Assembly: GCA_964460875.1 (NCBI GenBank)
Contig: CAYWQN010000002.1
Coordinates: 1-43,527, forward strand
Direction of reading: 5' to 3'
Length of the DNA: 43,527 nucleotides
From: an uncultured Candidatus Saccharibacteria bacterium
GTDB lineage: Bacteria > Patescibacteriota > Minisyncoccia > Phycocordibacterales > Phycocordibacteraceae
Shown: positions 6,707 through 40,543 of the stretch, one piece after another
How positions within the stretch are numbered: position 1 is the first letter of the stretch
How the letters are laid out: every line of letters starts with the position of its first letter
Program-made: the position numbers and the translations under genes
Notes under the pieces: generated by a model
Database searches by the model: none
Seen by the model: the letters and a program-made list of their open reading frames with translations, nothing else
Told to the model about the DNA's origin: nothing

Positions 6707-6715
6707 TGCTATATT
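6707..6715 (+). promoter_or_regulatory. Extended -10-like box TGCTATATT, 6 nt upstream of the trpS ATG
   Basis: Same nonamer as upstream of lysS. It supports ATG 6722 as the true trpS start. Confidence 0.4.
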
Positions 6716-6721
6716 GCTCTC

Positions 6722-8001: not shown

Positions 8002-8044
8002 ACGTATTCGAATATAGGCCGCAAGCGTGCTATTTTATCCTCAT

Positions 8045-15668: not shown

Positions 15669-16829
15669 ATGAAGATTGTATTCACGGGAGGGGGCACCGG
15701 CGGCCATTTCTATCCGCTTATCGCGGTGGCCGAGCAGGTGCGCGCCATAGCGCGCGAGCGCCGGCTCGTGGCCCCGAAGCTGTACTACGTAGCGCCGAGC
15801 GCATTCGACACCGACGCGCTTTTTGAGAACGAAATGGTATTCATAGGCTGCCCGGCGGGGAAGTGGCGACGCTATTTCTCCCTCCAGAATTTCTCGGACC
15901 TGTTCGTCTCTGCAAGCGGATTCGTATCAGCCCTGCTCACCCTCTTCCGCATCTACCCGGATGTCGTCTTCTCCAAGGGCGGCTACGCCTCCGTGCCGGT
16001 AGTGCTCGCCGCGCGCGTCCTCGGCATACCGGTATTCATCCACGAGTCGGACGCGAAGCCGGGGAAGGCGAACATCATGGCCTCGTCATTCGCCTATCGC
16101 ATCGCCGTCGCCTTCGACAGCGCCGTCGCCTTCTTCCCAGCGAAGGTGCGCGACCGCGTCGCGCGCACGGGCATTCCCATTCGCGCCGCCATCATGATGC
16201 CGGAGCCCGAAGGCGCAGCCCAGGAGCTTTCCCTTGACCCGACGGTCCCTACAGTCCTTATTCTCGGCGGCTCTTCAGGCGCGCGCGCCGTAAACGACGT
16301 TGTGCTCTCAGGACTCGCGGAGCTTGTAGACGCAGCGAACATCATCCATCAGACAGGGAAGGACAACTTCGCGGGGGTTTCGGGCACGGCAAAAGTCATT
16401 CTCGAAAAAAGCGCCTCTGCGCAGCGATATCATCCGTTCGCGTATCTCAATACGCTATCCATGCGCCGCGCATCAGGCGCCGCCGATCTCATTATTTCCC
16501 GAGCTGGCATGACGTCCGTCGCGGAAATCGCGCTCTGGAAGAAACCAGCCATCCTCATCCCGATTCCCGAGTCCGTGAGCCATGATCAGCGCACCAACGC
16601 CTACGCCTACGCCCATACGGGCGCGGCTGTCGTCCTTGAAGAGCAGAATCTTTCCCCGCACGTCCTTGTATCCGAAGTCCGCCGCATATTGGGCGACGCG
16701 GCGCTTCGCGCTGATATGAGCGCGAAGAGCTCAACGTTCGCGAATGCGGACGCCGGCCGCATCATCGCGGAAGAGCTCATCACCCTGGGCCTCTCCCATG
16801 AGCCGCAGGCGTCGTCTGCGCAGATATAA
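15669..16829 (+). CDS. murG: UDP-N-acetylglucosamine--N-acetylmuramyl-(pentapeptide) pyrophosphoryl-undecaprenol GlcNAc transferase
   Basis: N-terminal GGGTGGHFYP loop and C-terminal ISRAGMTSVAEI...HDQRTNA motifs. Confidence 0.9.
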   Translation: MKIVFTGGGTGGHFYPLIAVAEQVRAIARERRLVAPKLYYVAPSAFDTDALFENEMVFIGCPAGKWRRYFSLQNFSDLFVSASGFVSALLTLFRIYPDVVFSKGGYASVPVVLAARVLGIPVFIHESDAKPGKANIMASSFAYRIAVAFDSAVAFFPAKVRDRVARTGIPIRAAIMMPEPEGAAQELSLDPTVPTVLILGGSSGARAVNDVVLSGLAELVDAANIIHQTGKDNFAGVSGTAKVILEKSASAQRYHPFAYLNTLSMRRASGAADLIISRAGMTSVAEIALWKKPAILIPIPESVSHDQRTNAYAYAHTGAAVVLEEQNLSPHVLVSEVRRILGDAALRADMSAKSSTFANADAGRIIAEELITLGLSHEPQASSAQI

Positions 16830-16833
16830 TCCT

Positions 16834-18162
16834 ATGGACGTCGTCACCCGCATCCCACCTTCGCCAACCGGCCGCCTCCATATCGGCACCGCGCGCACAG
16901 CGCTTTTCAATTACCTCTTTGCCCGGCGCAACGGGGGGAAGGTGATATTCCGAAGCGAAGACACGGACCGCGTCCGAAGCAAGAAAGAATTCGAGGAAGA
17001 AATCATCGAAGGCCTCAAGTGGCTCGGCTTGTCTCACGACGGGGAGATTATCCGCCAGAGCGAGCGGAGCGAGCGATACGGGGAGCTTTTGCAGAGCGTT
17101 ATCGCGTCAGGCAAAGCCTATGTTTCCAAAGAGCCGGCAAAAGACGATCCAGAAAGAGAAGTGGAAGTCATTCGGCTCAGGAATCCCGGGGTGGAAGTAA
17201 TATTCGAAGACGCTATTCGTGGTCCTATCAATACGCATACGGGCGACCTTGGCGACTTCGTGATTGCACGCTCAGTTACCGACGCGCTCTATCACTTCGC
17301 CGTGGTCGTTGACGACTACGACGGGGGAGTGACGCACGTTATCCGCGGCGAAGACCATATTTCCAATACCGCGCGCCAAATTCTCATTCAAGAAGCGCTC
17401 GGGTTCCCGCGCCCTGTGTATGCGCACCTGCCGTTAATTCTCGCGCCGGACCGTTCGAAGATGAGCAAGCGCCATGGCGCAGTCTCCGTCCTTGAGTACC
17501 GCCAGGACGGATTCCTGCCGGAAGCCATCATCAACTACTTGGCGCTCCTCGGCTGGAACCAGGGCGACGACCGCGAAGACTTCTCGCTCGCAGAACTCGT
17601 CGATGCGTTCGATCTTTCCCACGTGCACAAGTCCGGCGCCATATTCGACATGGTGAAGTTCAAGAACGTGAACCAGCGCTGGATGCGCAAGCTTACCGAT
17701 GAGGAATACATAAGCCGCGGCGCGCTCGCCGACAATGACCCGCGTGTGCTGAAGGCCGTGCCGCTGTTGAAAGACCGCGCAACGACGTTCGCAGAAGCCC
17801 GCGACATGCTCTCCGGCGAGCTTGCCTGCCTCTTTACGGCTCCGACCCCGGACGCCGCCACTCTTGCGAAGAAGGAGCCAGAAGGCGCACTAGGCTGCAC
17901 AAAAGCGCTTCTTGAAGGCATCGTGCCCTTGATACAGGCGCTTCCGGCGGATGCATCGTCCGACGTGGTGAAAGACACCCTCATGCCGTACGCCGACGCG
18001 GAGGAAGCGAAACAGAAAGGCGGACGCGGCGCCGTGCTCTGGCCGCTTCGCTACGCATTGTCGGGCGCTGAGCGGTCACCGGACCCGTTTACGCTCGTCT
18101 CCATACTAGGCGCAAAGGAATCTGTCGCACGCCTTCATAAAGCCCTTGCTATACTGAAATAA
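16834..18162 (+). CDS. gltX: Glutamate--tRNA ligase
   Basis: RIPPSPTGRLHIGTARTALFNY (HIGH) and KMSKRHG (KMSKS). The track start 16744 lies inside murG; ATG 16834 gives the canonical N-terminus. Confidence 0.9.
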   Translation: MDVVTRIPPSPTGRLHIGTARTALFNYLFARRNGGKVIFRSEDTDRVRSKKEFEEEIIEGLKWLGLSHDGEIIRQSERSERYGELLQSVIASGKAYVSKEPAKDDPEREVEVIRLRNPGVEVIFEDAIRGPINTHTGDLGDFVIARSVTDALYHFAVVVDDYDGGVTHVIRGEDHISNTARQILIQEALGFPRPVYAHLPLILAPDRSKMSKRHGAVSVLEYRQDGFLPEAIINYLALLGWNQGDDREDFSLAELVDAFDLSHVHKSGAIFDMVKFKNVNQRWMRKLTDEEYISRGALADNDPRVLKAVPLLKDRATTFAEARDMLSGELACLFTAPTPDAATLAKKEPEGALGCTKALLEGIVPLIQALPADASSDVVKDTLMPYADAEEAKQKGGRGAVLWPLRYALSGAERSPDPFTLVSILGAKESVARLHKALAILK

Positions 18163-23998: not shown

Positions 23999-26407
23999 AT
24001 GGCAAAACGAGTCACCGAGCATCTGTTCACTGGAGGCACCGTCATGTACGACGCGTACGACTCGACGAAAACTGTGCTCGGCGACCTCATCCGCCAACAA
24101 ACAGGCGCGGCATCCACTGACAAATACGCCGGTCCAACAAAAGTAGCTGTTGCCCGACCGAACGAAACGTCGGTAGCGGTTCCAGGCATCTACCCTCACG
24201 TCGTACGCTGGTCGGATAAATCAGGCTATTACATAACGGGCACCGTAGCGGTATCAGGCACCGCCGTCACCGGGTCCAGCACCGCGTGGCTCGCTGCGGG
24301 CGTGCCAGTGAATGCACGCATAGGCTTCGGTACTACCGACCCGGTAGCGGTAACGACCTGGTACAACATCGTGGCCATCCCTTCAGACACCTCACTGACG
24401 CTCGACGGATCTGCCGGCACCATAGCGGGCGGCACCTCGTTTGTTATTGATATGAACTACAACGTTGACTGGGTATTTCTAGCCGACGGTGCCGCAACCG
24501 CTGCAACAAGACGTATCACCTGCTTTGAATATCGCCGCGGTCTATCAATCTTCACCTGGAAAGGATTCATTACGCAGACGTATCCGACTGCCACGAACCA
24601 CACGATTACCGGTATGCGCGCCGTGTACGCGAAGTACACGACCGGCACCGTGGGAGTTTCCACCGCAACGGTAACGGGGAGCAGCACCACCTGGAGCGCT
24701 GACCGCATCAACATTGGCTCCCGCATCGGATTTGGTTCGTCCGACCCCACCCAGATATCTACCTGGTATTACATCAATGCCGTAGGGTCCGACACCTCAA
24801 TCACTATTCAAAACAACGTCACCGCTTCTGGTACCGGCGGCGTCGCATCGAACCTCTCAATATCCTCCGGCACCGCATACGTCATCGAGGACCTGCGCAT
24901 TCTCACTACCACAACAAACGCTACAGCCACCAACGGCGGACTCTTCATGTCCGCTGGCATGTCGCAGGATGACTTTACCCCTGCGGGCACCACTATTGCT
25001 GCAGCGGTGACCACTGACAAAGTAAAAGCAGTGTACTGGCTTGCCGATGCCTCAACCGTCACCAACGACGCGAACTCAGGCCTTGCGCTTGACGATCGGG
25101 ATAGTTGGACCCAGCAGTACTGCTACGTCATTGAGCGCGTCGCCGCGACCACGCCGTCAATATACAAATACAATTTCCGCACTGCGCTTGCGTCAATATC
25201 TGCCGGGAAAACTACCTCTGCGTTCGTGTTTGCAACCGGCATCCAGACCGTTACCGGTAACACATCAGCAACTAACAACGGCCGTGTCGGCACACTTTCC
25301 CACGGCCCGGCTTCCGGAATAAAGTCTCTCTTCTTCGCAACGACTTCGCGCATTTACCGCGTTGCAATCGGAAATATAGTAAACGGTTCGACCACATTTC
25401 TTTCTGACGCCATGGTGGAAGTACCGACCGGAGGCACCGGAACCTTTACGGCCACCGGCGCATTAACCGGCGTTGAAATTTCAGACCAGATTGACCGCCT
25501 TATCGTAACCTCAACGGGAGCTGCGGGCGTGAGAAGCTACGTAACCAAGTACAACACTAACTCCGATCCTTTCGACCATATCTTCCTGATTGACTCTAAG
25601 CAAATAGATCAGGCGGCAGCTGACTCAAGCTCAGTGCCACACCCCAACATCCAGGCCGGTATCATGAACGTCTGGTCAGAAGAAGGACTCACGTACATAA
25701 GCCGCGCCGGCACCACTTCGCTTACAAACGCACTCTACGCCGTGCCGCTTGGCGCTGATTGGTCCTATGCCGACGGCACGGTAAAACAGCGGCTTTACAC
25801 CCCATCCCTAGCGACGCCTAATGCGGTTAAGTATTCGCGTGCGTATGTAAATAATGCGCAATACTTGGGAGAAGATAATCTCACGCTTCCGACCGAACCG
25901 ATGCGCATGTATTACCGAACTTCGGGTATAAGCGATAACAGCGGCTCATGGACGCTCATCGACCAAACGGGGGACCTTTCCGGTGTTGATGGCGCGGCCG
26001 CCATACAGTTCGCAATTGAGTTCCGCACGATTGGTACGTTCTGTTTACCAACTCGCGTGTTTAACGTATGTGTTGTATATGAAGACAACACGACCGATAG
26101 CCATTACCAGCCATCGGTAGCGTTCTCTTCAACCACTGCTAAGCAGTTCGCATGGCGCTTCTCGACTGCCTTTGGCGGCACTGTGCCTACCTTGCAGATA
26201 CAGCTGTTCGACGCAGTTTCAGGAAGCCTCCTACTCACCGATGACAGCGCAACTCCAACGGGAACCTGGGAAAAATCTACAAACGATGGGGGAGCGTGGG
26301 GCGCGTACAATACCACTGACAAGGGAAATGATACGACCTATATCCGCTACACGCCGGCTGCTCTTGGCGACGATGTGAAAGTGCGTGCCCTCCTTACCCA
26401 AGCCTAA
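23999..26407 (+). CDS. Hypothetical 802-aa Thr/Ser/Gly/Ala-rich protein with an internal duplicated module and no signal peptide
   Basis: Long uninterrupted ORF 10 nt after the upstream stop. Duplicated GTVxVSxTxVTGSSTxW...RIGFG...WYxI...SDTS(L/I)T module at residues 78-151 and 212-298. Confidence 0.75.
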   Translation: MAKRVTEHLFTGGTVMYDAYDSTKTVLGDLIRQQTGAASTDKYAGPTKVAVARPNETSVAVPGIYPHVVRWSDKSGYYITGTVAVSGTAVTGSSTAWLAAGVPVNARIGFGTTDPVAVTTWYNIVAIPSDTSLTLDGSAGTIAGGTSFVIDMNYNVDWVFLADGAATAATRRITCFEYRRGLSIFTWKGFITQTYPTATNHTITGMRAVYAKYTTGTVGVSTATVTGSSTTWSADRINIGSRIGFGSSDPTQISTWYYINAVGSDTSITIQNNVTASGTGGVASNLSISSGTAYVIEDLRILTTTTNATATNGGLFMSAGMSQDDFTPAGTTIAAAVTTDKVKAVYWLADASTVTNDANSGLALDDRDSWTQQYCYVIERVAATTPSIYKYNFRTALASISAGKTTSAFVFATGIQTVTGNTSATNNGRVGTLSHGPASGIKSLFFATTSRIYRVAIGNIVNGSTTFLSDAMVEVPTGGTGTFTATGALTGVEISDQIDRLIVTSTGAAGVRSYVTKYNTNSDPFDHIFLIDSKQIDQAAADSSSVPHPNIQAGIMNVWSEEGLTYISRAGTTSLTNALYAVPLGADWSYADGTVKQRLYTPSLATPNAVKYSRAYVNNAQYLGEDNLTLPTEPMRMYYRTSGISDNSGSWTLIDQTGDLSGVDGAAAIQFAIEFRTIGTFCLPTRVFNVCVVYEDNTTDSHYQPSVAFSSTTAKQFAWRFSTAFGGTVPTLQIQLFDAVSGSLLLTDDSATPTGTWEKSTNDGGAWGAYNTTDKGNDTTYIRYTPAALGDDVKVRALLTQA

Positions 26408-26409
26408 TT

Positions 26410-27030
26410 ATGATTACTATCTCAAAGGGTGATCGTGTCGCGGGACTTCCCGACCTCATAGTGTCCTCTCCGTCGGGAGAGTACGCAGACGTAGACCTTA
26501 TTCTCTGTGCGCGGAAGGACGCGCCGAACTTCGACGCCGCCATGTACCAAGCGCAGTTTATCCGGTACGGAGAAGTCGTCTATCAGCACGAGACACCGGA
26601 AGCGCTTGGAGCGGTGCTTGTCGCCATTGATCCAGAATCCACTCATGATGCTGCGCAGCTGTGGCGGGAAGAAGAGAAGCGTCGCATCGCACGTGAAGGC
26701 GGTACTCTAGTGCCAGAAGATCAAACTCCTGCACCCGATGCCGTTGAACCTCAGACAACTATTCCTGAGGAAGAAGAGGACGACGTGAAGTTCTTTAAAG
26801 AGAAAGAGGAAGAAGCAGCTACTACCACACCAGATGAAGCGGTGCCGGACAGAGAAATCCCTGTCATTGATATTGAAGAACCGCCACTCGGCGAGGTGGG
26901 TGGTGCAGCATCTTCTACAGAGCCAATCGCCGATCCTTCAGTCCCCGTCATACAAATTGACGAGCCAGTGGTGACTCCTCCAGTTGAAGATGTGCCAGCG
27001 CTCGATATGTCGAGCACAACACCGCAATAG
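26410..27030 (+). CDS. Hypothetical acidic protein (206 aa) with a Pro/Glu/Thr-rich disordered tail
   Basis: Starts 2 nt after the previous stop. The C-terminal half is low complexity (EEEEDD, EKEEEAATTTPDE, repeated PVI(D/Q)I(E/D)EP). Confidence 0.6.
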   Translation: MITISKGDRVAGLPDLIVSSPSGEYADVDLILCARKDAPNFDAAMYQAQFIRYGEVVYQHETPEALGAVLVAIDPESTHDAAQLWREEEKRRIAREGGTLVPEDQTPAPDAVEPQTTIPEEEEDDVKFFKEKEEEAATTTPDEAVPDREIPVIDIEEPPLGEVGGAASSTEPIADPSVPVIQIDEPVVTPPVEDVPALDMSSTTPQ

Positions 27031-27032
27031 CC

Positions 27033-27215
27033 ATGGCGCTAACCGATATCGACTTTAACGAAGGAGAAGGACAAGATTTCATCGTCGAGCTTGCGACTGG
27101 AACTCTGGGTACGCCGGGAGATATTCTGGTCGAAGCAGGGAGCGATGCGTATCTTCTCCTAGAAACCCCAGCAGGGCAGGGAGGCGGGGATGAAATATTC
27201 ATCATAAACGACTAA
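27033..27215 (+). CDS. Hypothetical small acidic protein (60 aa)
   Basis: Starts 2 nt after the previous stop, in operon context only. Confidence 0.45.
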   Translation: MALTDIDFNEGEGQDFIVELATGTLGTPGDILVEAGSDAYLLLETPAGQGGGDEIFIIND

Positions 27216-27238
27216 CCAGGTCTGGTATCCTTCAGGGC

Positions 27239-27970
27239 ATGGACGATTCAGCGCCGATTACGGAACGCTATGGCGAGTATCTTGAAGAGCTACGGCGCAG
27301 ACTCTACCGTCTTGCGCTTATCTTCGTCGCTTCTTTCTTCATAGGAGTTGGTTCTACCAGTATCTTGCTGCCTTTTTTCGTAACACTCTTCTCTGTGCCG
27401 GGAGTGACCATCATTGCCACCTCGCCGTTTCAACTTCTTGAACTGACGATGAATACCGGTTTTTTCTCGGCGATAGCGCTTACCCTTCCGTTTGCGCTTC
27501 GTGAAGTCTATGCCTTTCTCCACGACGCGCTCTTACCACGTGAACGGCGTCTTATTTTCTGGTACATTCCGCTCGCCCTTCTTCTCTTCGCCGCCGGCTT
27601 TACCTACGGATTTGCGATTATGTATTACGCTATCGTGGTCATCGCGAACGTCAACATCGGGTTCGGTATCACTAATCTCTGGAATATTACCCAATTCATC
27701 TCACAAATCCTTATCACGGCAGCACTCCTCGGCGTCATCTTCGAGCTTCCGTTAATCCTTTCTGGCCTTATCCAGCTCGGCGTGTTGTCGGTAGACTACC
27801 TGCGCCGTCATCGTCGCATCGCATATGCAGGGATATTCATCTTTGTTGCTTTACTTCCCCCAACCGACGGGCTATCCTTCCTGGTGATGTCCCTTCCGCT
27901 TGTGGCGCTCTACGAAGTGACGATTGCCGTCAATTCGTTCCGCCGCCGGAAAGAACTCTTAACAATATAA
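27239..27970 (+). CDS. tatC: Twin-arginine translocase subunit TatC
   Basis: 243 aa. N-terminal EYLEELRRRL helix followed by six hydrophobic segments, and the LLPPTDG motif typical of TatC. TGGTATCCT lies 7 nt upstream. Confidence 0.85.
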   Translation: MDDSAPITERYGEYLEELRRRLYRLALIFVASFFIGVGSTSILLPFFVTLFSVPGVTIIATSPFQLLELTMNTGFFSAIALTLPFALREVYAFLHDALLPRERRLIFWYIPLALLLFAAGFTYGFAIMYYAIVVIANVNIGFGITNLWNITQFISQILITAALLGVIFELPLILSGLIQLGVLSVDYLRRHRRIAYAGIFIFVALLPPTDGLSFLVMSLPLVALYEVTIAVNSFRRRKELLTI

Positions 27971-27982
27971 TTTTTGGTACCT

Positions 27983-28141
27983 ATGTTTGGACTCGGCTCG
28001 AATGAACTCATCATCATCGCGGTCATTCTCGTACTTTTGTTTGGTGCCACCCGCATCCCAGCGCTCACGAAAGGAGTAGCAGACGCTATTCGCACACTGC
28101 GCGGTGCATTCAAAGACGAAGACAAAAACAAGAAGGTATAG
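27983..28141 (+). CDS. tatA: Twin-arginine translocase subunit TatA/E (52 aa; below the ORF-track cutoff)
   Basis: Hand translation MFGLGSNELIIIAVILVLLFGATRIPALTKGVADAIRTLRGAFKDEDKNKKV matches the TatA pattern: MFGxGxxELxxIxxxxxLLFG, then an amphipathic helix with GxxxxxFK. TAG stop at 28139-28141. Confidence 0.8.
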   Translation: MFGLGSNELIIIAVILVLLFGATRIPALTKGVADAIRTLRGAFKDEDKNKKV

Positions 28142-28147
28142 CACAAA

Positions 28148-28180
28148 GAAAAATCCCGGTCCTAGCCGGGATTTTTCTTG
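28148..28180 (+). terminator. Intrinsic terminator after tatA
   Basis: GAAAAATCCCGG-TCCTAG-CCGGGATTTTTC followed by TTG. It ends the 23260-28141 operon. Confidence 0.75.
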
Positions 28181-28219
28181 TATTCTTGTGGGGAAAAGGG
28201 AAGAGTGCTCTAGAGGCAG

Positions 28220-28228
28220 TGCTACACT
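28220..28228 (+). promoter_or_regulatory. Extended -10-like box TGCTACACT, 6 nt upstream of the GTG start of the giant gene
   Basis: Same nonamer as at 21525-21533. No Shine-Dalgarno sequence intervenes. Confidence 0.4.
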
Positions 28229-28234
28229 GTAAAA

Positions 28235-31200
28235 GTGAAGATTTCATTAAGCGGCCCTGCCGCTTTAAGCGGGAATCAAAAAAGGACTAGGATACGCATT
28301 GCGGGCCTAGCGTTGTTTGTTGCGCTATATATAGGGCTTCCCGCCGCCGTAGAAGCTGCGTACCAGCAGTTCCTTCCAGGAACTGATATCTACTTTGGTG
28401 AATTCGTATACGACGATGACTTTGTAGCAACTACTACCGCAGGCTGCACCATGACGGTCTATGATCCGTCTGGCTCACTTGTGGTGAATGCGGCAACAAT
28501 GACCGTTGACCCCAATGGCTTCTACGCCTATTCCTTTACACCAACCGAAACCCGGGGGGTATGGCCCGCATCCATGTCCTGCGGATCGGCATTAAACGGA
28601 AGTCTGGTGAAGCTCGATAAGACGTTTGAGATATCAGACAATGTTGTTTCCTCTTCGTCCGTTGCTGCCCTAGTAAATGCGAATACGAATCTTGCGGTTG
28701 CGACCGCTTCCTCTTCGCTCTCAGCAACCCTTCCTAATTCCATTTGGGCCTTCTCAGGTCGCACTCTTACATCGTTCGGAACATTAGTAGCTGACATCTG
28801 GGCATCCGGCACTCGCACCCTTACCGGATTTGGCACCCTTGCGGCTGACGTGTGGACATCCGCAACACGTACACTCACCGCTGCCGGTCTCACCTCGGGA
28901 TCACTGGCTCTTCAGTCAGATGTCACCACCGCTAGTTCGTCACTGGGCACGGCCATCACGAACAGTCAAACGGCTATTAATGCGAACACGAACTCACAGA
29001 TACTTACTGCCTCAACATCGCTCGCGTCGTTCATCAATACGAACACCAACGCGATTGTGCTCGCCGCTTCAAGCTCGCTGGGAGCGCAATTCAACGTCCT
29101 GGGAGCGACTATTGCAGGCATACCGGCGGCGGTCTGGAATATCACTACCGCATCGCTCTCAAGCCCAGGATCGATAGGGAAGCTTATCGTGGATAACCTC
29201 GATGTCGCGGTATCGACGGTTTCGGGTGGTGGTGGCCTCACGGCGGTTGATATCTGGACCTATGGCACACGAACGCTCACCGCAGCAACCCTCTCTTCAG
29301 GAGCACTCGCGCTTCAGTCTGACGTGACGACCGCCTCCTCCTCTATTGCGGCAGTGGTCAATGGAAATACGAATGCACAGGTACTTGCCGCTTCCACCTC
29401 ACTTGCTTCGAACATCAACACCAACACCAATGCCATTGTTCTTGCTGCCTCCTCGTCCCTCGGTGCTCAGTTCTCATCTATAACGTCATCCATTGCTTCC
29501 ATTCCAACCAACGTTTGGGCCGCAGGGACGCGTACTCTGACCGGCTTCGGAACGCTCGCAGCTGACGTCTGGACCAACGGTACTCGTACGCTTACCGGTG
29601 CCGGTCTCTCGTCAGGCTCTCTTGCCACGCTGTCTGACCTACAGACAGCATCATCATCTCTTGGCGCCGCTATTACTAACAGCGAAACGGCAATTAATGC
29701 GAACACGGATGCTGAGGTGCTTGCGGCTTCCACCTCACTTGCGTCCAATATCAACACAAACACGAACGCACAGGTACTCACCGCTTCTACCTCCCTTGGT
29801 CTCTCGCTTTCATCAATCGCATCTTCTATTACTTCGATACCGGCGAACGTATGGGCAGCAGGCACGCGTACGTTAACTGGGTTCGGTACTCTTGCTGCTG
29901 ACGTTTGGACCAATGGCACCAGAACCCTTACCGGAGCCGGCTTGTCGTCTGGATCCCTTGCCACTTTGTCTGACGTACAGAACGCTTCAAGCTCAGTGGC
30001 TGCAGTCGTAAACTCAAATACCGACAGTCGAGTTGCAATTGCTACCTCCTCGCTTGCTGCGGTGGTGAATGCGAACACCAACGCAACCGTTCTTGCCGCT
30101 TCCTCCTCGCTTGGCGCTCAGTTCGGCACGCTCGCAACAGCAATATCAGGTGTACCTGCCGGAGTCTGGAACATCACTACCGCCTCGCTCTCAAGTCCGG
30201 GCACGATAGGGAAGCTCCTCGTGGATAACATCGATGTACCTATTTCAAGCGGTGGCAGTCTTACAGCAGCCGATGTATGGGCGTTCGGCTCTCGCACTCT
30301 TACCGCCGCAACGTTGAGTGCCGGTTCGCTTGCACTTCAGTCTGACGTAACCACCGCATCCAGCTCACTCGCTGCAGTTATTAATGCCAACACCAACAGC
30401 GCAACAGCAGGAGTTACGAGTAGCGTGAACAGCAACACCAATGCAACGGTACTTACTGCATCGTCATCCCTTGCAACCTCGATTCCAGTGAACGTATGGA
30501 ATGCATCAGTACGCACGCTTTCATCATTTGGCACACTCGCTACCGATGTGTGGAGCGCAGCAAGCAGGACCCTCACGGCAGCTGGGTTGACGAGTGGTTC
30601 GCTCGCAACGTTGTCTGATGTGCAGACGGCCTCAAGCTCACTCGGGACAGCAATAACAAATAGTCAAACGGCAATTAACGCGAACACCGACAGTAGGGTA
30701 GGTATCGCATCGTCATCTCTTGCTGCGGTCATCAATGCAAATACGAACCTCTCCGTTCTCACGGCGTCCACCTCGCTTGGTCTCTCGCTTTCATCGATAG
30801 CAACTTCGATCACTTCAATTCCTACCGCAGTGTGGGCCGCTGGCACACGCACTCTTACCGGGTTCGGCACCCTTGCAGCTGACGTTTGGACGAATGGCAC
30901 CAGGACCCTTACCGGTGCAGGTCTCACCTCAGGGTCCCTTGCCACGCTGTCTGACCTACAGACAGCATCATCATCTCTTGGCGCCGCTATTACTAACAGC
31001 GAAACGGCAATTAATGCGAACACGGATGCTAAAGTACTTGCAGCTTCCACCTCGCTTGCATCCAATATCAACACAAACACAAACGCTACGGTGCTCGCTG
31101 CGTCCTCATCTCTTGGCGCTCAGTTCTCCTCTATTACGTCCGCTATCACTGCAGTTCCAGCGGCAGTATGGAACGTCGCAAGCTCTACGCTCACCACTCC

Positions 31201-34200
31201 AGGTTCTATTGGCAAGCATATCGTTAACAACCTCGATATTGCGGTCTCGACTATTTCAAGCGGCAGTGCCATTACCCCTGCTGACATCTGGGCGTACGGT
31301 ACGCGCTCCCTCACCACAGCCGCACTTTCTTCAGGGGCGCTGGCCACCAATGCTGATATCAACGCAGCGACCACGAGTGTGAACACCACCATCGGTACTG
31401 CCTCTTCATCCCTGGCAGCGGTTATCAACACCAATACCAATACGCAGGTTCTTACGGCTTCAACTTCGCTTGGCGCTCAGTTCTCGTCGATCACCTCATC
31501 CATTGCTTCCATCCCAACCAACGTTTGGGCCGCAGGGACACGCACCCTTACCGGGTTCGGCACCCTTGCGGCTGACGTCTGGACGAACGGCACACGAACA
31601 CTCACTGGCGCAGGGTTGTCGTCTGGATCCCTTGCGACGTTGTCTGATGTACAGACCGCTTCGAGCTCTGTCGCTGCGGTCGTGAATGCAAACACTAATA
31701 GTGCGACGGCAGGAGTTACGAGTAGCGTGAACAGTAATACCAATGCAACGGTACTTGTTGCATCGTCATCCCTTGCAACCTCGATACCAATAAATGTATG
31801 GAATGCATCAGTACGCACCCTTTCATCATTCGGTACGCTTGCAACCGATGTCTGGAGCGCAGCATCACGCACGCTCACTGCAGCTGGCCTTACCTCAGGA
31901 TCGCTCGCGCTTCAGTCAGACGTGACTACCGCGTCCTCCTCACTTGGTGCGGCAATAACGAACAGTCAAACCGCCATTAACGCAAATACGGATAGCCGTG
32001 TGGCAGTAGCAACATCGTCACTTGCTGCGGTCGTGAATGCGAACACAAACGCAACCGTTCTTGCAGCATCGTCCTCACTTGGCGCTCAGTTCTCGTCGAT
32101 CACCTCATCCATTGCATCCATCCCAACCAACGTATGGGCGGCAGGGACGCGTACTCTGACCGGCTTCGGAACGCTCGCAGCTGACGTCTGGACCAACGGT
32201 ACTCGTACGCTCACGGCTGGCACGCTTTCGGCGGGGTCGCTCGCCTTGCAGTCTGACGTAACGACGGCATCTACCTCTCTTGGCACAGCGATAACCAATA
32301 GTCAGACGGCGGTGAACGCGAACACCAACGCGCAGGTACTAGCGGCCTCCACTTCGCTTGCGTCGAATATAAATACCAATACGAACGCACAGATTCTCGC
32401 AGCCTCTTCTTCGCTCGCAACCGCGATACCCGTGAATGTCTGGAACGCGTCAGTCCGCACGCTCTCGTCGTTCGGTACGTTCGCGACCGATGTTTGGAGC
32501 GCCGCTTCGAGGACGCTCACGGCGGCGGGTCTGACCTCGGGAAGTCTCGCAACCTTGTCTGACGTTCAGACCGCATCATCCTCTATCGCGGCCGTCGTGA
32601 ATGCGAACACGGACACGAGGGTGACCACGGCAACTTCCTCGCTTGCAGCCGTCATAAACGCCAACACGAATGCGCAGGTGTTAACGGCATCCACCTCGCT
32701 TGGCCTCTCGCTCTCATCAATTGCTTCGTCCATCACCTCAATTCCAGCAAACGTCTGGGCGGCGGGCTCGCGTACGCTCACCGGTTTTGGAACGCTCGCG
32801 GCTGATGTGTGGACGAACGGGACGAGAACACTTACCGCAGGCACCCTTACTTCAGGAACGCTCGCCTTGCAATCTGACGTGACGACGGCTTCGTCGTCCC
32901 TCGGCACCGCCATTACGAACAGCCAGACGGCGGTGAACGCAAATACGAACGCGACGGTGCTCGCCGCATCCACGTCACTTGCCGCAGGAACCGCTGCAAG
33001 CCAGACCGTCGTAAACGCAAACACCAATGCCGCAGTCTTGGCCGCATCGTCCTCGCTTGCAACTTCTATACCCGTGAACGTGTGGAATGCATCAGTCCGC
33101 ACGCTCTCGTCGTTCGGTACGCTCGCGACCGATGTTTGGAGCGCCGCTTCGAGGACGCTCACGGCGGCGGGTCTGACCTCGGGAAGTCTCGCAACCTTGT
33201 CTGACGTTCAGACCGCCTCGTCGTCTGTCGCTTCAGTAGTTAACGCAAACACCAGTGCTGCAGTTCTCGCCGCATCCACGTCGCTTGCCTCGAACATAAA
33301 CGCGAATACCAACGCGACGGTGCTCGCCGCGTCGTCGTCCTTGGGTGCGCAGTTCTCGTCGATTACCTCATCAATTAGCGCGCTGCCGGCTGCGGTCTGG
33401 AACGTCGCAAGCACCACCCTTACGACCCCAGGCTCGATAGGCAAGCATATCGTCGGCAACCTCGATATCGTCGTATCGTCGATATCGGGCGGCGGCGGAC
33501 TTACCGCAGCAGACGTCTGGGCGTACGGTACGCGCTCGCTCACCACAGCGGCACTCTCTTCCGGCTCATTGGCCACGAATGCTGACATAAATACCGCCAC
33601 CTCGACCCTCACCACGACTATCACGACCGCCTCCTCGTCTATCGCCGCAGTCGTGAATGCAAATACCAATAGCGCCACGGCAGGGGTGACGAGCGGCGTG
33701 AATAGCAACACAAACGCCGCCGTTCTCGCCGCATCGTCGTCGCTTGCGACCTCGATACCGGTGAATGTGTGGAATGCCTCGGTCCGAACCCTCACCAGCT
33801 TCGGCACTATCGCGTCTGACGTCTGGAGCGCTGCAACGAGGACGCTCACGGCAGGCACACTCACCTCAGGAACGCTTGCGCTCCAGTCTGACGTTCAGAC
33901 CGCGTCTTCCTCCCTTGGCTCGGCGATAACGAACAGTCAGACGGCGATAAATGCCAATACCGACAGCCGCGCCTCCATCGCATCCTCGTCGCTTGCGGCG
34001 GTGATAAATGCGAACACCAACGCACAGGTACAGACTGCGTCCACCTCGCTCGGCGCCACGCTTGCCGCGATGCCGGCTGCAGTATGGGCGTCAGCCACAA
34101 GGACGCTCACCTCAGGCGCCTCTATCGCCTCAGACATCTGGGCGGCAGGCACGCGCACCCTCACGTCCCTCACGCTCTCGTCGCAGTCGCCGTGGTCGGT

Positions 34201-35086
34201 CGGCATGTCTGACTTCAGCACCATCACGGCAGGCGAGACCTATCGCGCGACGGTGACGACGGTCTACAACGGCACGCTTACCGATTCGGCAAACCTGCCG
34301 ACCATCATCGTGTATGACGCAAACCGCAACGTGGTCGTGAACGGCGCCGCCATGACGCGCACCGCGGTAGGCACCTACGAATACAGCTACGTGACAAGCG
34401 TGAGCGCCGCAGGCGGCGTATGGGAGACCGTCGTGTCTGCCACGGTTGAGTCAGGGAAGACGTTGCCGGGCAACGACTACTGGAACGTCTCGGTCGCGCC
34501 GCCGCAGGTCATCATCCAGAGCATGAGCAATACCGTGGTGCCGAACATCACCGCGAACGTCCGCATCACGAACGAGGGTGATGTGCCCTACGAATACCAG
34601 TACGAATGGTGCGTCGTCTCGAGCCTCGCAAATGGCTGCGGCGGCGGCGATGATATCGCGTACGGATCGGCCGCGAAGCTCATCAATCCGCTCGAGAACT
34701 TCGACACCGTCCTGTCGGCAACCGTCCCCGCGGCCGGCACCTATTACTTCAAGGTCGCGGTCTACTACGGCTCTGACGTATCACGCGCAAGCCGCCAATT
34801 CGCCGCAACTGCAGCAACCACCTCCGGAGGCGGGGGTGGCGGAGGCGGAGGCGGAGGCGGCGGGGGAGGAGGCGGAACCCCGGTCCCCGGAAGCGGCAGC
34901 TGCGGAGGAAATGTCGCCGATATCAACTGCGACGGCCGGGTGAATGCCGTGGACTTTTCCATCATGCTTGCGTATTGGAAGACCCAGGCGCCGTTCCGTA
35001 ATCCGCGCGTCGACCTCAATACTGACGCGCGCGTCGACGCCGTCGACTTCTCGATACTCCTCTATCACTGGGGCGCCACACGCTAA
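28235..35086 (+). CDS. Giant (2,283 aa) tandem-repeat surface protein with N-terminal signal/anchor, poly-Gly linker and C-terminal type-I dockerin
   Basis: A single 6.85-kb ORF. N-terminus KRTRIRIAGLALFVALYIGLPAAVEAA. About 17 Ser/Thr/Ala/Asn-rich modules. Seventeen consecutive Gly codons. The C-terminus has two dockerin calcium-binding repeats, DINCDGRVNAVDFSIML and DLNTDARVDAVDFSILL. Confidence 0.85.
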   Translation: MKISLSGPAALSGNQKRTRIRIAGLALFVALYIGLPAAVEAAYQQFLPGTDIYFGEFVYDDDFVATTTAGCTMTVYDPSGSLVVNAATMTVDPNGFYAYSFTPTETRGVWPASMSCGSALNGSLVKLDKTFEISDNVVSSSSVAALVNANTNLAVATASSSLSATLPNSIWAFSGRTLTSFGTLVADIWASGTRTLTGFGTLAADVWTSATRTLTAAGLTSGSLALQSDVTTASSSLGTAITNSQTAINANTNSQILTASTSLASFINTNTNAIVLAASSSLGAQFNVLGATIAGIPAAVWNITTASLSSPGSIGKLIVDNLDVAVSTVSGGGGLTAVDIWTYGTRTLTAATLSSGALALQSDVTTASSSIAAVVNGNTNAQVLAASTSLASNINTNTNAIVLAASSSLGAQFSSITSSIASIPTNVWAAGTRTLTGFGTLAADVWTNGTRTLTGAGLSSGSLATLSDLQTASSSLGAAITNSETAINANTDAEVLAASTSLASNINTNTNAQVLTASTSLGLSLSSIASSITSIPANVWAAGTRTLTGFGTLAADVWTNGTRTLTGAGLSSGSLATLSDVQNASSSVAAVVNSNTDSRVAIATSSLAAVVNANTNATVLAASSSLGAQFGTLATAISGVPAGVWNITTASLSSPGTIGKLLVDNIDVPISSGGSLTAADVWAFGSRTLTAATLSAGSLALQSDVTTASSSLAAVINANTNSATAGVTSSVNSNTNATVLTASSSLATSIPVNVWNASVRTLSSFGTLATDVWSAASRTLTAAGLTSGSLATLSDVQTASSSLGTAITNSQTAINANTDSRVGIASSSLAAVINANTNLSVLTASTSLGLSLSSIATSITSIPTAVWAAGTRTLTGFGTLAADVWTNGTRTLTGAGLTSGSLATLSDLQTASSSLGAAITNSETAINANTDAKVLAASTSLASNINTNTNATVLAASSSLGAQFSSITSAITAVPAAVWNVASSTLTTPGSIGKHIVNNLDIAVSTISSGSAITPADIWAYGTRSLTTAALSSGALATNADINAATTSVNTTIGTASSSLAAVINTNTNTQVLTASTSLGAQFSSITSSIASIPTNVWAAGTRTLTGFGTLAADVWTNGTRTLTGAGLSSGSLATLSDVQTASSSVAAVVNANTNSATAGVTSSVNSNTNATVLVASSSLATSIPINVWNASVRTLSSFGTLATDVWSAASRTLTAAGLTSGSLALQSDVTTASSSLGAAITNSQTAINANTDSRVAVATSSLAAVVNANTNATVLAASSSLGAQFSSITSSIASIPTNVWAAGTRTLTGFGTLAADVWTNGTRTLTAGTLSAGSLALQSDVTTASTSLGTAITNSQTAVNANTNAQVLAASTSLASNINTNTNAQILAASSSLATAIPVNVWNASVRTLSSFGTFATDVWSAASRTLTAAGLTSGSLATLSDVQTASSSIAAVVNANTDTRVTTATSSLAAVINANTNAQVLTASTSLGLSLSSIASSITSIPANVWAAGSRTLTGFGTLAADVWTNGTRTLTAGTLTSGTLALQSDVTTASSSLGTAITNSQTAVNANTNATVLAASTSLAAGTAASQTVVNANTNAAVLAASSSLATSIPVNVWNASVRTLSSFGTLATDVWSAASRTLTAAGLTSGSLATLSDVQTASSSVASVVNANTSAAVLAASTSLASNINANTNATVLAASSSLGAQFSSITSSISALPAAVWNVASTTLTTPGSIGKHIVGNLDIVVSSISGGGGLTAADVWAYGTRSLTTAALSSGSLATNADINTATSTLTTTITTASSSIAAVVNANTNSATAGVTSGVNSNTNAAVLAASSSLATSIPVNVWNASVRTLTSFGTIASDVWSAATRTLTAGTLTSGTLALQSDVQTASSSLGSAITNSQTAINANTDSRASIASSSLAAVINANTNAQVQTASTSLGATLAAMPAAVWASATRTLTSGASIASDIWAAGTRTLTSLTLSSQSPWSVGMSDFSTITAGETYRATVTTVYNGTLTDSANLPTIIVYDANRNVVVNGAAMTRTAVGTYEYSYVTSVSAAGGVWETVVSATVESGKTLPGNDYWNVSVAPPQVIIQSMSNTVVPNITANVRITNEGDVPYEYQYEWCVVSSLANGCGGGDDIAYGSAAKLINPLENFDTVLSATVPAAGTYYFKVAVYYGSDVSRASRQFAATAATTSGGGGGGGGGGGGGGGGGTPVPGSGSCGGNVADINCDGRVNAVDFSIMLAYWKTQAPFRNPRVDLNTDARVDAVDFSILLYHWGATR
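28646..34194 (+). repeat. In-frame tandem repeat array (about 17 modules of roughly 100-125 aa, or 300-375 nt) inside the giant gene
   Basis: Recurrent peptide boxes (V/I)W-x3-(T/S)R(T/S)LT, GSLA(T/L)(L/Q)SDVxTASSS and NANTNxxVLAASSSL. Copies share identical stretches of 71, 93 and 94 nt. Confidence 0.9.
34826..34876 (+). repeat. 17 consecutive glycine codons (GGN microsatellite-like tract)
   Basis: The sequence reads gga ggc ggg ggt ggc gga ggc gga ggc gga ggc ggc ggg gga gga ggc gga, in the frame of the giant gene. Confidence 0.9.
34919..35083 (+). other. Dockerin type-I module (two EF-hand-like repeats) at the C-terminus of the giant protein
   Basis: D-x-N-x-D-(G/A)-x-V-x-x-x-D-F-S-I-(M/L)-L occurs twice, separated by about 20 residues. 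Confidence 0.8.
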
Positions 35087-37433: not shown

Positions 37434-39275
37434 ATGAAATCCGCCGCAGAGCGGGCTCCAAATAGAGATAATCGCAAGGACGGCGCGCCGAAGCGTCCTA
37501 ATCTCCATATCGCAGGACCTGAAGACCTGGAGCGCCTGAAGCGCAAGGAGGCAGGACAGCTGCGCGACCAGTACGTCATACACGAACCAGAGGCAATCGC
37601 TATAGCTGCGCCCACTGAGGATGAGCTGGCGCAGCTCGATCCGCTAGTCCGTAAAGCGGTGATGAAAGCGTACAAAGACGCAAAAGAGACGCAGCGTGAA
37701 GACTATAAGAGAGGCGTGAAGGAACGCGAGGCAACGCGTACGCGACCTAAACGCATCGGCATACTCTCAGCCGAGTACCAGGCGAACATGGCTATGATAA
37801 AAGGCCAGAACCCGACCGACACGCTCGGCCCTATGGAGAGCACCGGCGGCATCACGTCCCCGCGCTATCAGGAAGTGCTGCGCCAGCGCCGTCAGCTCGC
37901 AAAGATTCAGGAAGCACAGGAGTTCAAGCCCTTCACGCGCATACTCCCGAGAATGATCGGCAATTTCATATTCGGCAAGCGCCCCGTCCCGCTCGTAAAA
38001 AGCGGCGAGGCTAAAAAAACTATTCGCGGACTTGCGGCGCTGCTTGCCCTCGGCGGCGCGAACATTGCGACCGCGCACCCGGAAGACCATGAGTCGCATC
38101 GTACTGGAAGCCCCATCGAACACGCGCTCGCAGAAGCAGAGCTCGCTCAAGCGGAGCGCACCTTGAGCGGCCCGGCAGCAGAGAGCGCGCTCAACATCAT
38201 TGACCGCATGTGGCAAACCAAGGGCGCCAATGCAATATCGCGCGGCCACGACACCGCTTCGCAGCGCCTTGCCATGCATACGCAGCTCAAGGAGGCCTTG
38301 GAAGACGGCCGCGTGCATCACCTCTCGCTTGATGACGAGCTTGCGAGCTCTATGGGCATCCAGGAAAGCGAGTACCGTGAACGCAGCATCACGCAAATCA
38401 TTGCCGGTCATGACACCTTCGACTGGTATACCTTCTCAGAGGATTTCCAGCTCAGCGCCGAGCAGCGCGCAACCACCGAGCGTCTTGTTCGGCTTGTCTC
38501 TCCTGGAATGATTGAGTCTATCTTCTTAAACGAAGTAATGGGGGAAGGGGACGGCGAGCAAAATGTCGCAGCATGGGCCAGGACGCTCGGCACATTGGGC
38601 GAAGGCACTTCCATGGTCCCTACCTTGGGCGACCGCTACGGCATCGTCGGTCCCGGCCAAGAAACTCTTACGCTCGCTCCGGACCAGTCGGTAGGACGGA
38701 TGAGCCGTTACATTTCCTCGGAAGGGTTCTGGTATCTGAATCTTCCCACTTCGTTCGCAGATACTCGCTCGGATTATGAGCGGGGAAGCCATATGGGCTT
38801 CCGTACCTCGCTTGAGACAAACGCACGCGTGCCCCGCTCTCTGGCCGAAGAACGCCTCGAAGTCGCCCTAAACGCGGCCTACAACATTGCTCGCGCAAGC
38901 CAGTCCCTGGAATCACAGCGCGGCTTGAACTACATCGCGCAGATTGCCGAGAACACGCAACCGGAGAATGCACGGCAGCGCGCCCTCGCGCTCACGCGCC
39001 TCGCGGAATTCGTCGGTATGGCGCATAACAACCCGGGCGATGCCCTCAAGGCGCTTAGCGAATGGTCGCGCGCCGGACATCGTTTGAACATAGCGCTTCA
39101 CACCTACGCACCGCGAGATTCCATCGTGCAGGACTATGGCGCTCGCGCCGTCATGAATTACCCGGCAATGGAAGAGTATGCCACGCGGGTATTTGCGCAG
39201 CGCGGCGTCCGGCTTCCACAGGAAACCCCGGCTTTCGAGCGTATTCGCAGCAATATCAGGCGCGGCATTCAGTAA
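37434..39275 (+). CDS. Hypothetical 613-aa protein with a basic N-terminal region and one internal hydrophobic segment
   Basis: Long ORF. The hydrophobic stretch IRGLAALLALGGANIATA near residue 200 suggests an N-in signal-anchor. No family recognised. Confidence 0.65.
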   Translation: MKSAAERAPNRDNRKDGAPKRPNLHIAGPEDLERLKRKEAGQLRDQYVIHEPEAIAIAAPTEDELAQLDPLVRKAVMKAYKDAKETQREDYKRGVKEREATRTRPKRIGILSAEYQANMAMIKGQNPTDTLGPMESTGGITSPRYQEVLRQRRQLAKIQEAQEFKPFTRILPRMIGNFIFGKRPVPLVKSGEAKKTIRGLAALLALGGANIATAHPEDHESHRTGSPIEHALAEAELAQAERTLSGPAAESALNIIDRMWQTKGANAISRGHDTASQRLAMHTQLKEALEDGRVHHLSLDDELASSMGIQESEYRERSITQIIAGHDTFDWYTFSEDFQLSAEQRATTERLVRLVSPGMIESIFLNEVMGEGDGEQNVAAWARTLGTLGEGTSMVPTLGDRYGIVGPGQETLTLAPDQSVGRMSRYISSEGFWYLNLPTSFADTRSDYERGSHMGFRTSLETNARVPRSLAEERLEVALNAAYNIARASQSLESQRGLNYIAQIAENTQPENARQRALALTRLAEFVGMAHNNPGDALKALSEWSRAGHRLNIALHTYAPRDSIVQDYGARAVMNYPAMEEYATRVFAQRGVRLPQETPAFERIRSNIRRGIQ

Positions 39276-39718: not shown

Positions 39719-40543
39719 ATGCACGCATCTATGAAAAATTTCGCACTCATCCCGAGCCTGTTGCTGGCCATTACGCTCATAGGAGCCCCGCTTGGCGCAT
39801 TCGCTGCAACCGCCTCCGGCAGCTTCGACCAAACCTCGCTCACCACAAGCACCACGAAGCCGACTATCGAAGGGTCCGCTGAAAACGTAAAGACGGTGCG
39901 TATTACGCTCGCCGACGCGAACGGGAAATCCGTGTATAAAAGCGGCACGATAAAAGTTAAGAATGGAGAGTGGGCGAAGAAAATCCCTAAAAAGCTCAAG
40001 GAAGGGAACTACGCGGTCACGCTCTATGGATCCAAGATCTCAAGCAGCACCGCTCTCGCTAGCAGCACGCTTGCCGTACTCGGCAAAGGGGAGACGGGCG
40101 GGTCTGTTTCAGTCTCCATGATTCCCCTCTTGTTCGGCGGAAATGCGCTCCATGGCGTTTCTATACCGGTAGCCTATGTCAAAGTCTCAAACACCGGCAC
40201 GGCCTCAACCTCGATCTCGGGATTCAATCTCACCGAAAACGGCTCAGCGCCCGACGATGTGGTTATCGGCTTCTCGACGAGCGATGATAAAGGTGCCTCA
40301 AGGACGACTATCGGCGGCACGGAAGGATCGACGCAATTCAAAAAAGGTGCAGCCTTTGTCCCGCTTGCAGGCACTATCGGCCCCAAGCAGTTCCGCATCT
40401 ATACGATAAAAGCGATTCTTTCCAAGAATAGCGGCAGCTACTACGGGACGAAGCTCATGATAAACGTCGTATCGGTAGCGACCGGCGCAAAAGTTTCCGG
40501 CATTATGCCGCTCCGCGGCACGACCTGGACCCTGGTCTATTAA
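39719..40543 (+). CDS. Secreted hypothetical protein (274 aa), beta-rich
   Basis: Signal peptide MKNFALIPSLLLAITLIGAPLGAFA; the ATG at 39731 is probably the true start. Ser/Thr/Gly-rich mature part. Confidence 0.65.
   Translation: MHASMKNFALIPSLLLAITLIGAPLGAFAATASGSFDQTSLTTSTTKPTIEGSAENVKTVRITLADANGKSVYKSGTIKVKNGEWAKKIPKKLKEGNYAVTLYGSKISSSTALASSTLAVLGKGETGGSVSVSMIPLLFGGNALHGVSIPVAYVKVSNTGTASTSISGFNLTENGSAPDDVVIGFSTSDDKGASRTTIGGTEGSTQFKKGAAFVPLAGTIGPKQFRIYTIKAILSKNSGSYYGTKLMINVVSVATGAKVSGIMPLRGTTWTLVY

Follow-up and report, generated by a model that had tools for sequence, protein, structure and literature searches.

The Patescibacteria (candidate phyla radiation, CPR) are believed to live fixed to other cells, and little is known about the structures by which they attach. 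Fibritin of phage T4 (gp wac) is a segmented parallel trimeric coiled coil, in which about a dozen helical segments are split by short loops. The trimeric autotransporter adhesins YadA, BadA and SadA are very long modular surface fibres, built by turns from coiled-coil stalks of variable length and short connecting or head motifs. In trimeric coiled coils, including those of these adhesins, anion-binding N(d)T layers of the polar core have been documented (PMC13580157). Cellulosomal proteins are anchored by the pairing of type I dockerins with cohesins, and a dockerin-domain protein is essential for the epibiotic growth of a cultivated Saccharibacterium (PMC10633639), which is cited here for context and was not compared with the protein under study. 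We describe a gene for a very long repeat protein in a stretch of 43,527 nucleotides (hereafter the window; contig CAYWQN010000002.1 of assembly GCA_964460875.1), which is labelled as DNA of an uncultured Candidatus Saccharibacteria bacterium, and we compare this protein with the systems above and with a large group of phage tail-fibre-like proteins.

In our reading, to which we assign a probability of about 0.6, the repeat array of this protein forms the shaft of a helical cell-surface fibre, segmented and probably trimeric, which is anchored by a dockerin in a Paceibacterota-type CPR bacterium. Such a fibre would share with the autotransporter adhesins a very long modular build, with variable rods alternating with short heads, and its I-x-x-N-T boxes resemble, by analogy, the N(d)T core layers of trimeric coiled coils. 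However, the YadA-type barrel anchor, head, neck and stalk motifs had no Pfam or NCBIfam match in the protein, whose C-terminus is a dockerin, and the organism of the window lacks an outer membrane that could hold a barrel; anchoring would be via the dockerin. The likeness to T4 fibritin is one of analogy only, with no sequence similarity: the window fibre lacks the foldon, and fibritin lacks Trp boxes and has segments that are far shorter. With the cellulosomal proteins it shares a C-terminal dockerin with a duplicated Ca2+ loop, next to whose gene lies that of a candidate membrane-anchored cohesin-like partner; unlike them, it carries as cargo a fibre shaft and no catalytic or carbohydrate-binding module, and the cohesin assignment of the partner is below threshold.

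The translation was cut at the motif [IVLM]P..[VI]W, which divides the array (aa 166-1983, nt 28730-34183) into 17 modules in the order A0, C, A, A, C, B, A, C, A, B, A, B, A, B, C, B, Z (Table 1), that is six modules of type A, five of type B and four of type C between a degenerate first (A0) and a degenerate last (Z) module. A first-pass annotation, made from the sequence alone, had given about 17 modules with these same subtype counts and degenerate ends, had noted that the order is not a simple ABC period and had reported more than 30 copies of a short Trp-containing box; each of these statements was reproduced. In fact, the W-box, W-x(2-4)-[TSVG]R[TS]L[TS], in which Trp, Arg and Leu are invariant, occurs 31 times, whereas 2000 shuffled versions of the protein contained 0.011 on average and never more than one; the four type C modules contain four extra degenerate boxes of the form VWN(I/V)xxxxL. 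Each of the 16 complete modules consists of a head and a tail. Heads of types A and B are 36 aa long and carry two W-boxes spaced 18 residues, whereas type C heads (55-58 aa) consist of a C-box and a single W-box. Tails measure 55-76 aa, differ by indels of 4, 7, 11 and 19 residues, and start with [ST][SA]G[STA]LA in 16 of 16 cases, as had been claimed for the GSLA-type segment. N-x-N-T-[NDS] boxes, corresponding to the NANTN boxes of which the annotation had noted two or three per module, number two in 15 tails and one in the remaining tail. An ITNS(Q/E)T box is added in eight of the tails.

The identity autocorrelation of the protein shows peaks at lags of 18/19 residues (the sub-boxes), 105/112 residues (the module), 214, 327 and 434 residues. 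When the period was checked, as the annotation had proposed, several consistent lags were therefore found at the protein level and no single one, which together with the box statistics bears out the description of a hierarchical repeat as opposed to low-complexity noise. On the DNA, Tandem Repeats Finder saw solely a GGN tract, because the module copies are only 60-78% identical at this level. Modules 9-14 form a run of three A-B pairs, and the lag of 434 residues stems from the ancient duplication of a block of several modules (6-7 versus 10-11). The junctions are context-dependent: all five B heads are preceded by a short tail end, SSSLAT(S/A), while A and C heads come after a tail end of the type G(A/L)(Q/S)(F/L)SSI..S. 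A heptad N(d)T register for the tail rods was considered and could not be fitted; about 3.8 residues per turn fits the 19-residue box better.

The repeat had no significant match when the whole protein was compared with Pfam, NCBIfam, PHROGs and the PDB, and no related solved structure was found for it among PDB sequences, in agreement with the earlier statement that no named family could be assigned. Whole-protein PDB matches were due to the glycine linker of single-chain variable fragment (scFv) constructs and were set aside. A word-based search returned ten long relatives; dockerins and MG2-like domains are present in eight of them, and one of the ten comes from Candidatus Taylorbacteria. 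A profile of 53 positions covering the C-box and the W-box (profile A1) was then built from the copies of the window and of CPR homologues. Compared with 1.84 billion representative proteins, it matched 3,438 protein clusters at E<=1e-3, 1,000 at 1e-10 and 106 at 1e-30. Within the window it recovered four C-box copies (E=7.4e-26 to 1e-22), and further W-boxes matched profile positions 41-53; since the window copies helped to build the profile, the independent evidence for a family consists of the matches elsewhere. The first-pass annotation had asked for the spread of the W-box to be searched and had not noticed what this search revealed, namely that thousands of phage tail-fibre-like proteins have the C-box and the W-box too.

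About one eighth of the top 150 profile matches have a dockerin motif. As in the window protein, a minority of the relatives combine a signal peptide, Ig-like end domains, a glycine linker and a type I dockerin, and the genes of these lie in the conserved cassette described below. Most are 350-900 aa long, have no signal peptide and open with a conserved domain of the form MxLxQS...KTGL...SKxGG...GNGWY. When 62 members of this signal-less type were compared with PHROGs, seven tail or virion families were matched, including tail fibre families 892 (6e-40), 21412, 28766 and 7660, minor tail family 2012 and virion structural family 32822. The profile also recovered 72 viral loci from IMG/VR. In one of them (L048) the gene of the box protein is flanked by genes for a portal (5.6e-105) and a major head protein (3e-77); in another (L035) the box protein matches the tail fibre family PHROG 892. 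A phage-type member, P0025, carries VWSYSSRTLTSFGTLVSDIWSHSTRTLT, the same double W-box as in types A and B; 1,697 proteins are related to it at E<=1e-10, which are all called 'hypothetical' where they are named and almost all of which lack a Pfam domain. A tblastn search of 50,697 GenBank phage records with a module pair and with the repeat of P0009 gave no match, and therefore the link to phages rests on the contigs of uncultured viruses and on the PHROG matches. A literature search for the 'RTLT' motif with 'tail fiber' gave no papers.

Judged by its sequence, the window protein is a true member of this large unnamed phage-fibre repeat family, with which it shares the C-box (xIWDxLTSxLTTxGSIGKLLxDNxDAxISSR) and the double W-box (VWxxxxRTLTxFGTLxxDxWxxxxRTLT). 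It differs from the bulk of the family, whose members are mostly 350-900 aa long, start with the signal-less MxLxQS...KTGL...GNGWY domain, lack a dockerin and are called 'hypothetical'. Among the members that were read, long I-x-x-N-T helical tails and three fixed subtypes are found only in the window protein and in a few CPR relatives (P0007, L086). The array of P0007, the Taylorbacteria homologue, contains a different inserted sub-repeat of about 13-14 aa, IKTKTDTI(A/D/N)W(S/A/T)D(V/I)TG, at aa ~280-400 and ~600-720; a related sequence, AIKAKTDNLP, recurs in many of the relatives from viral loci.

The annotation had suggested a beta-solenoid or beta-helix-like fibre with a regularly spaced Trp, and had proposed modelling of consecutive modules. 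Modules 8-10 were modelled with AlphaFold2 from ten paralogous rows, which gave a mean predicted local distance difference test score (pLDDT) of 52 and long helices in the tails (H66-118, H163-209 and H254-321, pLDDT 68-77). A second model, covering aa 282-372, for which 91 C-box segments of CPR homologues and viral loci were aligned, reached a mean pLDDT of 73 and contained only helix and loop, with no strands. Its elements follow each other as a helix (AAVWNITTASL), a loop (SSPGSI), a helix (GKLIVDNLDVAVS), a short helix (AVDIWTY), a loop (GTRTLT) and the next tail helix, so that the C-box is modelled as a helix-loop-helix and a short helix lies over the Trp of the W-box. From these models we consider the shaft, with fair confidence, to be alpha-helical. 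The tail indels of 4, 7 and 11 residues correspond to heptad, stutter and hendecad steps, which would be the signature of a coiled coil and not only of whole solenoid turns of 18-19 residues. A Foldseek search of BFVD and the PDB with the better model found nothing similar.

The remaining parts of the protein would suit an exported and anchored product. A Sec-type signal peptide, the cleavage of which would fall between AVEA and AY, is followed by an immunoglobulin (Ig)-like domain, and a 98%-identical relative contig (L085) shares the start and the N-terminus. The orthologues have equivalent signal peptides, followed by YAPGDTVxIGEFVYDDD. The twin-arginine translocation (Tat) signal S/T-R-R-x-F-L-K was not found: there is no RR pair in the N-terminus of the fibre (...NQKRTRIRIAGLALF...), and the motif is also absent from the orthologues P0003 and P0007. 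Over aa 48-109 the N-terminal domain scored 24.2 bits against Pfam MG2 (PF01835), below the cut-off of 32.8, which only the Taylorbacteria homologue reached (33.1 bits); the counterpart of the post-array domain in homologues gives a Pfam MG2 match. The predicted beta-sandwich-like domain that follows is kept in all dockerin-bearing relatives, and tblastn with the C-terminal part found 25 genome loci. The dockerin contains two D-x-N-x-D-x-x-V-(N/D)-x-x-D loops, DINCDGRVNAVD and DLNTDARVDAVD. Pfam DUF7032 (PF23005) gave E=9e-12 over the whole protein with no individually significant stretch, which looks like the sum of compositional matches over the helical tails and not like a domain; SpoVT_C and GLTP matches in P0003 appeared compositional too and were set aside.

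The fibre gene belongs to a conserved cassette, in the order tatC, (tatA), fibre gene, a gene for about 300 aa and a gene for about 500-560 aa. This order is kept around P0003 and P0007 (loci L083 and L084), where the downstream proteins are 29-41% identical to those of the window. A tatC gene lies in the same position in these two loci and in 18 loci with a tatC match from other genomes (19 counting L085), and a TatA_B_E Pfam match was obtained at the same place in L083. Orthologues of the 281-aa downstream gene occur in 24 genome loci. The product of the second downstream gene has an N-terminal hydrophobic segment, a putative cohesin-like domain, Ig-like domains and a C-terminal transmembrane helix; its frame opens at 35710, and the start near 35905 is placed by alignment with the orthologues. 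Among 41 box-bearing loci from GTDB species genomes, taken with 4-kb flanks, all five elements were found in 14 and the C-terminal domains together with both downstream genes in 24. The conserved adjacency of the fibre gene and the downstream genes speaks for a functional link only. The loci bear the labels Saccharibacteria, Paceibacterota, Nomurabacteria, Magasanikbacteria, Doudnabacteria and Wolfebacteria, and a few come from metagenome-assembled genomes (MAGs) labelled Gammaproteobacteria. Most orthologues measure 670-1450 aa, and the window protein (2283 aa) is one of the long ones. When 400 other genomes of the phylum were sampled evenly, the C-box was detected at E<=1e-5 in only one; either the cassette is thinly spread over a wide range of lineages or assemblies often lose it.

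The box was present in five MAGs labelled 'uncultured Gammaproteobacteria' (L089, L090, L092, L111 and L113). L090 and L092 contain the fibre gene and both downstream genes, L092 also tatC, and L111 contains tatC and the N-terminal domain; the bins of these three are therefore probably mislabelled or contaminated. L089 and L113 have long box-bearing frames and no cassette.

The modules are not products of recent expansion or homogenisation. Heads of the same type (36 aa) are 83-100% identical as protein and 68-95% as DNA. Over the ungapped first 54 codons, modules of the same type differ at a proportion of 0.63 of synonymous sites (pS) and 0.108 of nonsynonymous sites (pN), with a ratio of nonsynonymous to synonymous rates (dN/dS) mostly of 0.02-0.14. 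Since synonymous sites are nearly saturated while the protein is conserved, the subtypes are old and each copy is under purifying selection. Exact DNA repeats of 94, 93 and 71 nt are shared among modules (32481/33123, 29621/30938 and 29522/32141). Lying between modules otherwise saturated at synonymous sites, these patches are likely short gene-conversion tracts, and possibly substrates for recombination. The GC content at third codon positions (GC3) is 0.46-0.57 in modules 1-10 and 0.64-0.76 in modules 11-17, with a step at 32120 across which the encoded motifs stay the same, a pattern that suggests a gene of mosaic or recombinant origin. The contig L085 (DAORIN010000037.1), whose MAG bears the label Candidatus Paceibacterota, matches positions 25120-29349 of the window at 98% identity and diverges directly after the head of module 2. 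It then reads A, A, B, as compared to A, A, C, B in the window, so that the type C module 5 is missing, and it carries an extra N-A-H-T-D box. As this contig ends inside the array, the divergence is either strain-level variation of the array or an assembly break.

Several results weigh against the fibre as we propose it. The predicted template modelling score (pTM) was low in both AlphaFold2 models (0.24 and 0.33), and in the run with the shallow alignment the confidence of the heads was below 45. The strongest hydrophobicity period of the tails is 2.14 residues, as beta strands also give; a weaker one of 3.76 residues counts in favour of helices, and both periods are harmonics of the 19-residue box. 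A heptad register cannot be followed cleanly along the I-x-x-N-T boxes, and coiled coils seldom have a unit of 19 residues (about 3.8 residues per turn). The parallel trimeric coiled-coil state of the shaft is suggested by analogy only. As regards the anchor, Pfam Cohesin scored 17.5 bits on the 560-aa downstream open reading frame, below its cut-off of 24.1, and did not match the orthologues; searches of the PDB with the downstream protein, both as a single sequence and as a profile of three orthologues, found nothing.

The hydrophobicity period of 2.14 residues would suit a beta-solenoid or beta-helix, in which each W-box and NANTN box of 18-19 residues forms one turn and the Trp and Asn residues stack in ladders. 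The sub-box periods of 18 and 19 residues are typical solenoid turn lengths, and I-N-A-N-T-N-A alternates apolar residues with Asn. Such a fold is nevertheless unlikely: no strand appeared in either AlphaFold2 run, in which the relevant parts are helices of pLDDT 68-86, the tails differ by 4, 7 and 11 residues besides 19, and no solenoid family was matched in Pfam or the PDB. Strand-turn repeats and a fixed coil length were thus not seen, a result that comes from prediction and is not an experimental exclusion, and the first-pass assignment to this fold is not supported, while its view of the array as a fibre is still the most sensible one. An array of helices could also be something other than an extended trimer, if the rods fold back within one chain as antiparallel spectrin-type beads or as a surface-layer sheet, giving a shorter and thicker coat protein that is monomeric or otherwise oligomerised. 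The helix-loop-helix predicted for the C-box agrees with this, the Gly and Pro breaks in the heads could be turns, and the oligomeric state of a fibre is, as said, argued from analogy. We consider this arrangement doubtful, because the relatives in phage structural modules are fibre-like, because rods that vary freely in length (55-76 residues) are hard to fit to a fixed antiparallel packing, and because pTM is low and no tertiary packing is predicted.

The occurrence of the repeat family mainly in phage-context proteins raises the question of whether the gene might be the tail-fibre gene of a phage or prophage residing in the genome and not that of a cellular appendage. This is very improbable, given that the protein has a Sec signal peptide, a dockerin and Ig-like end domains and lacks the phage-type N-terminal domain, that its neighbours are housekeeping genes, with no phage structural genes found around it, and that the same cassette with tatC and the two downstream genes is conserved in many CPR lineages.

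According to the preferred reading of a dockerin-anchored helical fibre, the protein would be exported by Sec, as indicated by the signal peptide and the lack of a twin-arginine motif. The C-terminal dockerin, on its tether of 17 glycines, would most likely plug into one or more membrane-anchored cohesin-like proteins encoded by the two downstream genes, and the N-terminal Ig-like domain would lie at the distal tip, in contact with a partner cell or surface. Between them, the shaft would consist of sixteen alpha-helical rods of 55-76 residues, each made of the GSLA...ASSS segment and I-x-x-N-T boxes, alternating with heads of 36-58 residues. By analogy with phage fibres, T4 fibritin and the stalks of trimeric autotransporters, the rods would most likely associate as a parallel trimeric coiled coil, and the W-boxes may serve as register-setting knots between them. 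The 1,101 helical tail residues, at 0.15 nm each, would give a length of about 165 nm when fully extended, the heads being extra; such a cell has roughly this diameter. The fibre would probably serve to reach and bind a host or partner cell or a surface.

Since both head motifs are homologous to phage tail-fibre-like shaft repeats, the cell would be using a phage-fibre-type shaft as an appendage of its own. As a tentative extension, which we offer as a possibility with the odds against it, the CPR may have taken over a phage tail-fibre shaft, which in this lineage was lengthened to about 200 nm and built from three non-interchangeable module types that are kept by selection. The order of the modules would then encode either the register or length of the trimer or a series of distinct sites for binding partner proteins or ligands on the host surface. 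The array may even be a rapidly reshuffled host-range determinant, in the manner of fibre swapping by phages, because strains whose flanks share 98% identity differ in module content.

Table 1. Coordinates of the fibre gene, its parts and the conserved neighbouring genes in the window
Feature	Position (nt)	Strand	Basis or remark
tatC, upstream cassette member	27239..27970	+	Pfam TatC E=1.9e-36
tatA-like gene, 52 codons	27983..28141	+	translation: transmembrane helix, FG hinge, amphipathic helix
Whole fibre gene, 2283 aa, GTG start	28235..35086	+	sole long open frame here
Sec-type signal peptide, aa 1-41	28235..28357	+	KRTRIRI, hydrophobic core, AVEA/AY, read from translation
N-terminal Ig-like (MG2-like) domain, two Cys, then first NANTN/ASSSL boxes	28358..28729	+	aa 42-165
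Module 1, A0, degenerate A-like, three W-boxes, 130 aa	28730..29119	+	
Module 2, type C, 127 aa	29120..29500	+	C-box profile E=2.8e-24
Module 3, type A, 112 aa	29501..29836	+	
Module 4, type A, 105 aa	29837..30151	+	
Module 5, type C, 110 aa	30152..30481	+	C-box profile E=1e-22
Module 6, type B, 112 aa	30482..30817	+	
Module 7, type A, 112 aa	30818..31153	+	
Module 8, type C, 119 aa	31154..31510	+	C-box profile E=3.8e-25
Module 9, type A, 91 aa	31511..31783	+	
Module 10, type B, 112 aa	31784..32119	+	
Module 11, type A, 102 aa	32120..32425	+	GC3 higher from here on
Module 12, type B, 105 aa	32426..32740	+	
Module 13, type A, 109 aa	32741..33067	+	
Module 14, type B, 105 aa	33068..33382	+	
Module 15, type C, 124 aa	33383..33754	+	C-box profile E=7.4e-26
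Module 16, type B, 105 aa	33755..34069	+	
Module 17, Z, terminal double W-box without tail, 38 aa	34070..34183	+	
Post-array Ig-like (MG2-like) domain, aa 1984-2095	34184..34519	+	BLASTP to N-terminal domain E=1e-6
Second beta-sandwich-like domain (predicted), CxxxxxC pair, aa 2096-2197	34520..34825	+	sequence conservation
17-glycine linker (GGN tract)	34826..34876	+	translation, Tandem Repeats Finder
Type I dockerin, aa 2228-2275	34916..35059	+	Pfam PF00404 E=5e-7, 30.3 bits, cut-off 22.9
Downstream conserved gene, 281 aa	35090..35935	+	orthologues directly 3' of the fibre gene in L083 (E=2e-18) and L084 (E=6e-23)
Downstream gene, ~500-560 aa	35905..37392	+	BLASTP to L083 (6e-57) and L084 (8e-83)

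The genome that contains the window measures 785 kb and is 94.8% complete; the box is confined to the fibre gene, which takes up about 0.9% of it. The window is chromosomal and encodes aminoacyl-tRNA synthetases, MraY, MurG, an M23 peptidase and a histidine kinase. The best named matches of its tyrosyl-tRNA synthetase (TyrRS, 3830-5080) are from Candidatus Paceibacterota (88%), Parcubacteria bacterium C7867-001 (72%) and Kaiserbacteria (65%). For this reason the host is taken as a Paceibacterota-type CPR bacterium, and Saccharibacteria was rejected as the host taxon. Genes for aminoacyl-tRNA synthetases are unusually concentrated in the window: besides that of TyrRS they lie at 525-1985, 6413-7663, 8027-9370 and 16744-18162, and the set comprises two class II enzymes of the D/K/N type, TyrRS, a second class Ib enzyme of the W/Y type and one of the glutamyl-tRNA synthetase type. 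On the + strand 3' of the cassette there are further open reading frames, at 37434-39275 (613 aa, no family match) and 39719-40543 (274 aa, with a Big_13 Ig-like domain), which may encode additional surface proteins.

The gene joins in one locus a repeat of an unannotated phage-fibre-like family that counts thousands of clusters, a cellulosome-style dockerin and a Tat-adjacent CPR cassette. What is contributed here is the definition of the repeat, its predicted helical nature, the size of the family and the pattern of selection. Modules that are nearly identical as proteins, with saturated synonymous divergence, offer an unusually clean case of repeats that are kept individually by selection and not homogenised. 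For the family as a whole, the definition of the repeat by its W-box, its C-box, its helical N-T tails and a profile of 53 positions provides a handle for annotating thousands of dark-matter proteins of phages and CPR bacteria.

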